Of a DNA stretch of 38,555 nt, positions 5,890 to 37,221 are shown piece after piece. The DNA lies in IMG/VR virus record IMGVR_UViG_2537562091_000004; one strand, written 5' to 3'. The notes beneath the pieces were generated by a model that worked only from the letters and a program-made list of their open reading frames with translations, did no database searches and was not told the origin of the DNA. The position numbers and the translations under genes were made by a program. The stretch's first letter is position 1. Each line of letters opens with the position of its first letter. Source of the DNA: a virus (lineage: Duplodnaviria; Heunggongvirae; Uroviricota; Caudoviricetes).

Positions 5890-5965
5890 GGCCCTTTAGC
5901 TCAGTGGTGAGAGCGAGCGACTCATAATCGCCAGGTCGCTGGTTCAAATCCAGCAAGGGCCACCA
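5890..5965 (+). tRNA. ileZ: tRNA with CAU anticodon (tRNA-Ile2/Met type, like phage ileZ), CCA encoded
   Basis: Cloverleaf folded by hand: acceptor ggccctt/aagggcc, D-arm gctc/gagc, anticodon loop ctCATaa, T-arm ggttcaaatcc. Confidence 0.85.
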
Positions 5966-5972
5966 TCACATA

Positions 5973-6049
5973 CCGCCATTAGCTCATCAGGAAAGAGCGC
6001 CAGCCTTCGAAGCTGGTTGCGCGGAGTTCGGGTCCCCGAAGGCGGTCCA
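5973..6049 (+). tRNA. tRNA-Arg(UCG)-like; imperfect acceptor and T stems, possibly degenerate
   Basis: Anticodon stem ccagc/gctgg with loop ctTCGaa; T-loop ttcgggt; one mismatch each in the acceptor and T stems when folded by hand. Confidence 0.5.
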
Positions 6050-6062
6050 TTATCTGTATCCT

Positions 6063-6139
6063 GCGTTGTTAGCTCAGCCGGACAGAGCAATTGCCTTCTA
6101 AGCAATCGGTCACTGGTTCGAATCCAGTACAACGCGCCA
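6063..6139 (+). tRNA. tRNA-Arg (UCU anticodon), CCA encoded
   Basis: Acceptor gcgttgt/acaacgc, D-arm gctc/gagc, anticodon stem attgc/gcaat with loop ctTCTaa, T-arm actgg-ttcgaat-ccagt. Confidence 0.85.
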
Positions 6140-6184: not shown

Positions 6185-6397
6185 CTCACAATTCAGGCGG
6201 TTGACTGTTGTCTGGTTTGCGGGGAGTTTGTTAAAAGAAACTGGCATGGTGAATCCCCCTGTGCGGAGGGGCAATCAGCGAGTAGGTATATGGGATAATC
6301 GCGGATTCAGGTGCTGGTACTGAATTCACCGGGAGGCACCCGGCACCATGCAATGGCACATAGCGCCACTCTCCAGCCCCTCTCCGGAGGGGCTTTT
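6185..6397 (+). repeat. Copy 1 of a diverged tandem structured element of about 215-230 bp (candidate sRNA unit) ending in an intrinsic terminator
   Basis: Shares with copy 2: ctcacaattcag, TTGAC box, gcatggtgaatccccctg.gcggaggggc, caccgggaggcacccggcaccatg, and terminator gcccctc-tccg-gaggggc + tttt (6376-6397). Confidence 0.5.
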
Positions 6398-6588
6398 CTG
6401 TGCCGGATACATCACAGTTTCTGGAACCTTAGGTACTACAGTATCAGTCAGGGTGCTATATTTTCAGATGTGATGAAAGCCTGTCAGCAGGCAGGGCGTA
6501 TCGGAAATGACCCAGTAGAGAAAACGTTGACTCAGATACCGGTGCTGAGTTACCGGGAAACCGGCATCACATGACCGCTATCCTTCCA

Positions 6589-6615
6589 GGCCCATCCGCT
6601 CCGGTGGGCCTTTTT
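6589..6615 (+). terminator. Intrinsic terminator between the two repeat copies
   Basis: ggccca(t)ccg-ctc-cggtgggcc hairpin followed by ttttt. Confidence 0.5.
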
Positions 6616-6652
6616 ACTGCAGAAAACAGGTTCCCCGTTAAATGCTATGTTG

Positions 6653-6883
6653 CTCACAATTCAGTAAGTTGACAGTTGCCTGTCAGACTGGGCATTTGTT
6701 AAAAAAATTTCGCATGGTGAATCCCCCTGAGCGGAGGGGCGACTGGTGACGGTATAATCTCTGATTATCAAAACGAGAATGACGCGGGTTTAGTGGCACC
6801 GGGCTGAACTCACCGGGAGGCACCCGGCACCATGTGCATGATGATACAGATACGCGGCTTTAGCCCCTCTCCGGAGGGGCTTT
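6653..6883 (+). repeat. Copy 2 of the tandem structured element (candidate sRNA unit) with an internal TATAAT box and terminal terminator
   Basis: Same conserved blocks as copy 1; perfect TATAAT inside the unit; terminator gcccctc-tccg-gaggggc + ttt at 6863-6883. Confidence 0.5.
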
Positions 6884-6892
6884 CTTATGGAC

Positions 6893-6921
6893 AAAAAAAG
6901 CCCGCGCTGGGAGACGCGGGC
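6893..6921 (-). terminator. Intrinsic terminator readable only on the minus strand (possible end of a small leftward RNA)
   Basis: Minus strand reads gcccgcg-tctcccag-cgcgggc followed by ttttttt; the + strand has an A-run before the hairpin and no T-run after. Confidence 0.5.
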
Positions 6922-7114
6922 GGCAAGGAATAAACAATAAAACGTGAAGTAATATTTCAGCTGGCGAATAATACCCCATAGTAATCACTCTGCGCAACTG
7001 CGCGGTCTTTTTCGAATTGCGGGCTGTAGTCTCCCTTCTGCCATTGTCCTGTAACTTCCGGACTTCAGCCTGCTCCTTATCTGACTCACAACATTATCCC
7101 GCCCGGGAGGATTC

Positions 7115-36637: not shown

Positions 36638-37221
36638 TGGCATTCAGAATGAGTGAACAAGCACGGACCATAAAAATTTATAATCTGCTGGCCGGAACTA
36701 ATGAATTTATTGGTGAAGGTGACGCATATATTCCGCCTCATACAGGTCTGCCAGCAAACAGTACCGATATTGCACCACCAGATATTCCTGCTGGCTTTGT
36801 GGCTGTTTTCAACAGTGATGAGGCATCGTGGCATCTCGTTGAAGACCATCGGGGTAAAACGGTTTATGACGTAGCGTCAGGGGACGAGTTATTTATTTCT
36901 GAACTCGGTCCGTTACCGGAAAATGTTACCTGGTTATCGCCGGAAGGGGAGTTTTAGAAGTGGAACGGCACAGCCTGGGTGAAGGATACGGAAGCAGAAA
37001 AACTGTTCCGGATCCGGGAGGCGGAAGAAACAAAAAACAACCTGATGCAGGTAGCCAGTGAGCATATTGCGCCGCTTCAGGATGCTGCAGATCTGGAAAT
37101 TGCAACGGAGGAAGAAACCTCATTGCTGGAAGCCTGGAAAAAGTATCGGGTATTGCTGAACCGTGTTGATACATCAACTGCACCTGATATTGAGTGGCCT
37201 GTAAATCCTGTCAGGGAGTAA
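36637..37221 (+). pseudogene. tfa: Tail fibre assembly protein Tfa interrupted by an in-frame TAG (36955-36957)
   Basis: ORFs 36637..36957 and 36979..37221 are in the same frame; lambda-Tfa-like sequence is continuous across the stop (…[24 protein letters not shown]…). Confidence 0.75.

Follow-up and report, generated by a model that had tools for sequence, protein, structure and literature searches.

A minus-strand terminator in an E. coli lambdoid prophage as the probable 3′ end of a catalogued Hfq-binding RNA of the EcOnc08/EcOnc21/EcOnc42 family

Why should a transcription terminator face leftward in a stretch of prophage DNA where every neighboring gene is read rightward? The question is raised by a 38,555-nucleotide sequence from the IMG/VR record IMGVR_UViG_2537562091_000004 (hereafter the window), which corresponds to the late-gene part of a lambdoid prophage of E. 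coli. Positions 6850 to 7120 of the window are 100% identical to many E. coli chromosomes, including 042, CE10, APEC O18, and VR50, and positions 6600 to 7120 are approximately 90% identical to Stx-converting phages. An initial annotation, made from the sequence alone, proposed that positions 6893 to 6921 form a canonical terminator only on the minus strand, and that this element ends a leftward small RNA of 70 to 100 nucleotides with an architecture typical of Hfq-binding RNAs. It also described all neighboring genes as lying on the plus strand, which is the case. These are three tRNAs at 5890 to 6139, two copies of STnc100 RNA recognized by Rfam (6215–6405, 136 bits; 6683–6892, RF02076, 165 bits), and, by gene calls, a SASA/NanS-p esterase gene followed next downstream by a holin gene. 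The esterase gene starts at 7115, and thus the terminator is located directly upstream of it, as had been stated. The tRNA cluster is of the type usual in Stx-type phages (ileZ/argN/argO), and its first member, which ARAGORN reports as tRNA-Met(CAT) ahead of two tRNA-Arg genes, is a tRNA-Ile in RefSeq.

The terminator itself proved to be as described. On the minus strand, nucleotides 6921 to 6900 form a G+C-rich hairpin (GCCCGCGU-CUCCCA-GCGCGGGC) that is followed by seven uridines at 6899 to 6893, the putative 3′ end of the RNA. The stem comprises eight basepairs, seven of them G-C, wherein 6900 to 6906 pair with 6915 to 6921 and a U-G closing pair is added, leaving a 6-nt loop. Read on the plus strand, the hairpin precedes GGCAAGGAAUAAAC, where a U run is missing, and for this reason the terminator is one-directional. 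The element is therefore confirmed as a strong intrinsic terminator of the minus strand only. Its hairpin has a centroid energy of −16.9 kcal/mol and is the only paired part in the centroid structure of the 70-nt RNA that would end here, which folds with a z score of −2.86 (200 shuffles, one of which folds as well). Nor is it a chance feature, as, of 5426 complete E. coli genomes, 987 (18%) carry the region from 6890 to 6999 with an identity of ≥90% and in up to four copies each, and the carriers include ExPEC, APEC, and EAEC strains without Shiga toxin.

The surroundings of the element are densely structured. Its convergent partner is the second STnc100 copy, the terminator of which (6862–6881) faces the minus-strand terminator. 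The two STnc100-type RNAs are arranged in tandem and both end in the same AGCCCCTCTCCGGAGGGGCT terminator. The published probe for EcOnc05 matches exactly inside copy 1, at 6273 to 6307, and only the copy-1 type of STnc100 is found beside the minus-strand RNA in Sakai Sp4 and EPEC PP6. On the other side, a terminator scan identified a plus-strand hairpin at 6990 to 7005 (CTGCGC-AACT-GCGCGG, then TCTTTTT) that is terminator-like and probably provides a further barrier to un-antiterminated late transcription. A 45-codon minus-strand open reading frame with a TTG start at 6860 to 6997 is, judged on position alone, unlikely to be a gene, because the reading frame crosses the terminator hairpin. 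Elsewhere in the window, an Rfam match to the sok antitoxin at 1195 to 1370 (120 bits) implies a hok/sok-type type I toxin-antitoxin locus, and a full-length match to IS009 RNA (224 bits) is located at 36980 to 37178.

Does an RNA end at this terminator? Closely related loci have been studied in pathogenic E. coli. The 259 nucleotides from 6862 to 7120 are 93.4% identical to prophage Sp4 and 92.3% identical to prophage Sp15 of O157:H7 strain Sakai, and the locus aligns without gaps to prophage PP6 of EPEC strain E2348/69. For Sp4, Table S2 of Tree 2014 records two minus-strand Hfq-CRAC peaks, EcOnc08 (1179938–1180010) and EcOnc21 (1180016–1180101), which lie opposite late transcription and are convergent with the plus-strand EcOnc05, and the same study reports a homologous peak, EcOnc42, in Sp15. 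Through the Sakai alignment, EcOnc08 corresponds to approximately 6895 to 6967 of the window, and EcOnc21 and EcOnc42 correspond to approximately 6973 to 7058. Coordinates are not the only support for this assignment, because the published Northern probe for EcOnc08/21/42 also matches the locus, exactly and on the plus strand in Sp4, Sp15, and EPEC PP6, and with 5 mismatches in 35 nucleotides at window positions 6967 to 7001. As the probe is a plus-strand oligonucleotide, the RNA that it detects must be a minus-strand RNA; Tree 2014 gives the EHEC band as approximately 271 nt.

A second description comes from EPEC. Pearl Mizrahi 2021 reported the new sRNA candidate E2348C_1409.E2348C_1408.IGR, a 182-nt RNA of PP6 (NC_011601, minus strand, 1444797–1444978), and pointed out its homology to EcOnc08/21/42. 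When placed on the window, its 3′ end at 1444797 coincides with 6893, the last U of the tail, and its estimated 5′ end lies near 7074. EcOnc08, EcOnc21, and EcOnc42 of EHEC are the same RNA as E2348C_1409.E2348C_1408.IGR of EPEC, and they share with the window the sequence, strand, terminator, CCUUGCC seed, and TATTAT box. They also share its neighbors, with STnc100 on one side, the esterase/DUF6645 gene on the other, and Q and the tRNAs upstream. Compared with these RNAs, the window has a small number of substitutions, which fall in the spacer of the promoter, in the loop of the hairpin, and in the upstream part. Its host is a non-Stx E. coli, and its adjacent esterase gene is frameshifted.

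For these homologues, published data establish that the minus-strand RNA is made, is bound by Hfq, and ends at the U7 tail, and the homology of the window suggests the same for its own RNA. The initial annotation was thus right in kind in proposing a leftward Hfq-type sRNA, since homologues with 92 to 93% identity have CRAC peaks, a Northern band, and RIL-seq chimeras. It had named a search for a minus-strand transcript and for Hfq cross-linking as checks, and both are in print for the EHEC homologues (the Northern blot and the Hfq-CRAC peaks EcOnc08/21/42). The RNA is accordingly a rediscovery of a catalogued prophage sRNA that is already known in the literature under catalogue names. Sy 2020 describe EcOnc42 as an sRNA “bookending” stx1AB on the 3′ side, and a 2021 review gives its target as unknown. 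Our search of later literature for EcOnc08/21/42 or E2348C_1409 found only that review and the StxS paper, in both of which the target is unknown.

Reference collections gave no name for the RNA. No Rfam family matches the minus strand at the site at gathering thresholds, and the genome records that we compared have no annotated feature at the locus. When 6850 to 7120 was searched at E ≤ 10, only sub-threshold matches were obtained (OmrA-B at 25 bits, sRNA71, and others), which we discount because we judge them to be driven by the terminator and the AU content. The OmrA-B match (RF00079; 25.2 bits, E = 0.007, gathering threshold 40 bits) was rejected; its aligned 5′ part falls in the promoter spacer, which is different in Sakai. 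The Pas sRNAs flank the esterase gene and so PasA was considered as an identity. PasA, however, is located on the other side of the esterase, between esterase and holin, and the window contains neither a match to the published PasA/PasC probe with ≤3 mismatches nor a PasA-like RNA.

Together, these data lead us to assign a probability of roughly 0.78 to the reading in which an sRNA of the EcOnc08/EcOnc21/EcOnc42 family, encoded by the prophage and bound by Hfq, ends at the terminator, its 3′ core acts in trans, and its main transcription start is near 7086. The RNA would occupy the “moron” slot downstream of the late promoter, convergent with STnc100 and antisense to the NanS-p/SASA esterase, a setting that corresponds to the “convergent sRNA pairs” that Tree 2014 describe for the lambdoid-prophage moron site, on the 3′ side of pR′. 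Its functional part would be the conserved 3′ core of approximately 70 nucleotides, in which a stem-loop may form at the 5′ end, followed by a U-rich single-stranded stretch, the CCUUGCC sequence, and the terminator. The U tail would contact the proximal face of Hfq and, together with the U-rich body, would keep the RNA on the protein, whereas CCUUGCC would serve as a seed that pairs in trans with GGCAAGG-type sites in the cfa and dppA 5′ UTRs and in pcm, tir, and perA. The main primary transcript of approximately 180 to 195 nt would arise at about 7086 from a promoter overlapping the esterase start codon, and the 70-nt core might be released from a second start near 6962, at the TATTAT promoter, or by processing of the long form.

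The pattern of sequence variation singles out this 3′ core. When IMG/VR was scanned for the conserved hairpin CTGCGCAACTGCGCGG, 120 loci were obtained, and a looser hairpin pattern applied to these, to the genome loci, and to the window yielded 125 segments, of which 54 (27 distinct sequences) carry the cassette type of the RNA described here, termed type A, and 51 carry AsxR/EcOnc03-like cassettes. Among type-A sequences, variation is seen at none of the 6 columns of the −10 element, 2 of the 34 columns of the body (25 variants), and 1 of the 7 columns of the seed, but at 5 of the 18 columns of the promoter spacer and 21 of the 81 columns in the upstream part of the long form. Core positions (3 of 47 columns variable) therefore differ from spacer and upstream positions (26 of 99) with a Fisher p value of 0.004 that is indicative only, because the variants share ancestry and have recombined. 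All 14 distinct sequences of the short-RNA region retain the terminator hairpin, and 4 of 8 loop columns vary in type A. One compensatory change, from G:C to A:U, occurs in the stem in two distinct 3′ sequences, equivalent to 3 of the 27 locus variants. The AU- and U-rich body, at 6929 to 6962, coincides with the EcOnc08 Hfq-CRAC peak and may form a 5′ stem-loop by pairing of 6956 to 6962 with 6941 to 6948. The predicted loop is the site of a 4-nt indel, and covariation is absent because the stem is invariant. Among GTDB species representatives, a 28-mer of the core had no match and a 16-base pattern had only chance matches in unrelated taxa, a weak test that provides no evidence for spread outside E. 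coli.

Regarding length, the earlier prediction was less successful. Instead of 70 to 100 nt with a start close to the TATTAT box, the homologues were measured at approximately 182 nt by EPEC RNA-seq and approximately 271 nt by EHEC blot. The predicted length is probably wrong, and the predicted promoter is a candidate. Because the EHEC probe sits on the TATTAT promoter, the band it reveals indicates that at least one transcript starts upstream of that promoter. The two published lengths disagree, and both 5′ ends are approximate in the accessible parts of the sources. We infer that 271 nt is an approximate gel estimate, since on the same blots the Sp5 STnc100-type RNA runs at 235/247 nt, compared with 206 nt for the Rfam model, a model that includes some upstream sequence.

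A candidate for the upstream start is a minus-strand promoter-like site at 7093 to 7121 (ATGCCA, 17 nt, GATAAT), one of only two matches to the consensus between 5500 and 8500. Its predicted start near 7086 would give a 194-nt RNA, compared with the 182 nt read from EPEC coverage. A long form spanning 6893 to 7086, or approximately 180 to 195 nt, is consistent with the EPEC extent, the CRAC peaks, and the Northern probe. This distal promoter overlaps the start codon and RBS of the esterase gene, and about a third of the variants have GATAGT as the −10 element. The esterase RBS and start codon constrain these hexamers regardless.

The proximal promoter-like element proposed by the initial annotation is present with small corrections. 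The TATTAT box lies at 6968 to 6973 on the reverse complement of the window, and not at 6967 to 6972. The TTGCGC box is indeed at 6992 to 6997 and is indeed weak, and the spacer between them is 18 rather than 19 nt. Its TTGCGC, which derives from the sequence of the 6990–7005 hairpin, fits TTGACA at only three of six positions, and for this reason the element was not listed by the consensus scan. If this promoter were the principal one, a primary sRNA of approximately 70 nt starting near 6962 would be the main product and the longer RNA would represent upstream read-through, an alternative that we regard as possible but hold with less than even confidence. The comparative evidence favors the TATTAT promoter. 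TATTAT is unchanged in 27 of 27 type-A variants, whereas the spacer is altered at 5 of its 18 positions or, in the hybrid locus L027, wholly replaced at constant length. The invariance of TTGCGC among the variants, by contrast, follows from the search pattern, of which it was a part. AsxR-type loci share TTGCGC with an 18-nt spacing, there followed by TAAAAT, as the inferred promoter of AsxR, whose 5′ triphosphate end was mapped by RLM-RACE (Tree 2014) and falls just downstream of TAAAAT. The block that is exchanged between phage types, from just after the −35 element to the U tail, is exactly a short sRNA gene. Likewise, in locus L054 the cassette persists although the esterase and the distal promoter are replaced by unrelated sequence, and the EcOnc08 peak is separated from EcOnc21 by a gap at the −10 element. 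On the opposing side, the RNA-seq coverage in EPEC was interpreted as a single RNA of 182 nt, the short species is absent from the accessible parts of the published reports, and the −35 element has the poor match noted above. The sole published Northern probe would be blind to a 70-nt RNA, because it lies upstream of the start near 6962. Given the invariant TATTAT within a diverging spacer, and its correspondence to the position of the AsxR promoter, a separate 70-nt primary transcript is plausible.

Were there no such independent transcript, the 3′ core would be expected to be the functional part of the longer RNA, possibly after processing, by analogy with StxS and PasA. Both are made as long primary RNAs (258 nt yielding 74 nt and 236 nt yielding 85 nt, respectively) with a conserved, Hfq-bound 3′ part and a seed beside the terminator. 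It is in layout that the window RNA resembles them; processing is a feature of StxS and PasA.

The published RNAs start near the esterase start codon and therefore are antisense to the esterase 5′ UTR. Between about 7006 and 7086, the long form and the esterase leader are complementary throughout, the putative promoter of the long form extends over the start codon, and the RNA almost always adjoins this esterase gene. These facts would fit an RNA that acts mainly in cis, by antisense pairing to the 5′ UTR and RBS of the NanS-p esterase mRNA or by transcriptional interference, with the Hfq chimeras being incidental. We consider this unlikely, as conservation is lowest in the antisense part, where 26% of columns vary compared with 6% in the 3′ core, and L054 carries the cassette where the esterase gene is missing. 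Moreover, the window combines a frameshifted esterase gene with an intact RNA core, and hundreds of reproducible chimeras formed in trans share one motif.

Compared with its intact 1854-nt counterpart in strain 118UI, the esterase gene (7115–8968) lacks 7 bp near 7846; it is split by this deletion into open reading frames at 7115 to 8056 and 7801 to 8961 and therefore is probably a pseudogene. Its 3′ end (8917–8947) contains GATAGAAAGTCTGGTGCTGGAGATAAATGCA, which is identical to one PasA target-motif site given for the EPEC esterase E2348C_1246. Between esterase and holin, the plus strand at 9044 to 9072 forms a terminator-like hairpin of 12 basepairs followed by a T run. The same interval in EPEC and EHEC is the site of the PasA and EcOnc51/52 RNAs, to which this hairpin is unrelated in sequence.

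Evidence for action in trans comes from the RIL-seq data for the EPEC homologue. There, every chimeric fragment that involves E2348C_1409.E2348C_1408.IGR has it in second place (fraction 1.0 under both conditions), as would be expected for an sRNA. The accessible part of the source gives as its partners the cfa 5′ UTR (767 chimeras), the dppA 5′ UTR (197), and pcm (118), followed by perA (30), tir (29), espC (26), E2348C_3965 (16), and emrA (15). Pearl Mizrahi 2021 found the motif GGCAAGG in cfa, tir, pcm, and the yagU intergenic region, with variants in dppA and emrA, and aligned it to the sequence immediately 5′ to the terminator. In the window this position holds the complementary CCUUGCC (minus strand, 6928–6922), which is unpaired in both the MFE and the centroid folds and is thus a putative single-stranded seed. 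When the 5′ 48 nucleotides of the RNA were paired with the cfa and dppA leaders by RNAduplex, the results were no better than for shuffled sRNA (fractions 0.91 and 0.63), and we set this calculation aside as uninformative. Most likely, then, this is an Hfq-dependent, trans-acting, base-pairing sRNA that uses CCUUGCC, an assignment that draws on RIL-seq of the homologue, which reports proximity on Hfq and not regulation.

The shared motif also bears on another account of the terminator, namely that it is only a barrier to stray leftward transcription into the pR′ and tRNA region and that the RNA has no function. Terminators are densely spaced on both strands of the region (11 terminator-like sites in 3 kb, compared with 3.0 ± 1.9 in shuffled sequences), and any transcript with a hairpin and a U tail binds Hfq to some degree. 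This account is nevertheless very improbable, because the 34 nucleotides upstream of the hairpin are more conserved than its loop or flanks, the chimeras share a motif fitting one specific 7-mer, and other phages have proven regulatory sRNAs in the same slot.

The anti-sRNAs AsxR (RF02703), AgvB (RF02702), and EcOnc03 occupy the same slot between STnc100 and the CTGCGCAACTGCGCGG hairpin as the window RNA, likewise have TTGCGC, an 18-nt spacer, and a hairpin with a U tail, and bind Hfq, as the window RNA would by homology. From the spacer to the terminator, however, the sequences are unrelated, and the core of the window RNA is 70 nt compared with 51 to 60 nt. In the equivalent slot of Sakai Sp5 (Stx2), RF02703 detects AsxR at 88 bits, a positive control, whereas RF02702 and RF02703 have no match in 6850 to 7120 even at E ≤ 10. 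STnc100, PasD, EcOnc05, and EcOnc27 belong to the same prophage module and also bind Hfq, but are encoded on the opposite strand and constitute a different RNA, the convergent neighbor. The parallels in slot, −35 element, spacing, convergence with STnc100, and Hfq binding invite the view that the RNA is an anti-sRNA, or sponge, that titrates a core-genome sRNA as AsxR and AgvB do rather than targeting mRNAs, and dppA, an mRNA de-repressed by AgvB, is the second-best RIL-seq partner. Such a role is highly unlikely. The conserved 3′ region of approximately 42 nt in AsxR and AgvB (GAGUAUCUCAUGC..UUGCCCGAACCCAYUCGGGC) is absent from the window RNA, which likewise has no similarity to the corresponding part of EcOnc03. 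In addition, the partners recorded for AsxR, AgvB, and EcOnc03 are sRNAs, whereas no sRNA is among the significant partners listed in the accessible part of the EPEC source, which are mRNA 5′ UTRs, coding regions, and one intergenic region.

The slot holds more than these two kinds of RNA. Across IMG/VR loci L005 to L124, sRNA cassettes of at least five kinds occur at the positions equivalent to 6893 to 6989. These are type A, AsxR, EcOnc03, a third anti-sRNA-like variant (…GAGATATACATTTTTATAATCG…), and one further, distinct type that has the terminator GCCCGCAGTGAGTGGCGGGC. The L027 cassette is a hybrid, with an AsxR-like spacer joined to a type-A-like RNA that has UCUUACC as its altered seed. 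On the right, the variable cassette is bordered by the 6990–7005 hairpin, which is common to every cassette type, including those of type-A and AsxR/EcOnc03-type loci. One could therefore imagine, although we offer this only tentatively and with some doubt, that the conserved 70-nt core is an independently transcribed gene and one of at least five interchangeable cassettes, of which type A would be the mRNA-targeting member. The cassettes would be exchanged within a single fixed frame of lambdoid phages, which has on one side the shared −35 element, located in a plus-strand terminator, and on the other the STnc100 terminator. If this were true, type A, with cfa, dppA, and tir as targets, would act on dppA, the host transporter that is under indirect control by AgvB via GcvB.

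A reading of the sequence by itself has thus recovered a genuine Hfq-associated prophage sRNA, one that is widespread among complete E. coli genomes and yet is without an Rfam family or genome annotation. Its candidate targets, which include the RIL-seq partners cfa, dppA, tir, and perA, are of note. The cfa gene serves membrane cyclopropanation and acid resistance, dppA serves dipeptide and haem uptake, and tir and perA are EPEC virulence genes. If its promoter and a seed-dependent regulation of cfa and dppA were settled, the RNA would pass from a catalogue entry to a characterized phage-to-host regulator, though it would not represent a new kind of system.
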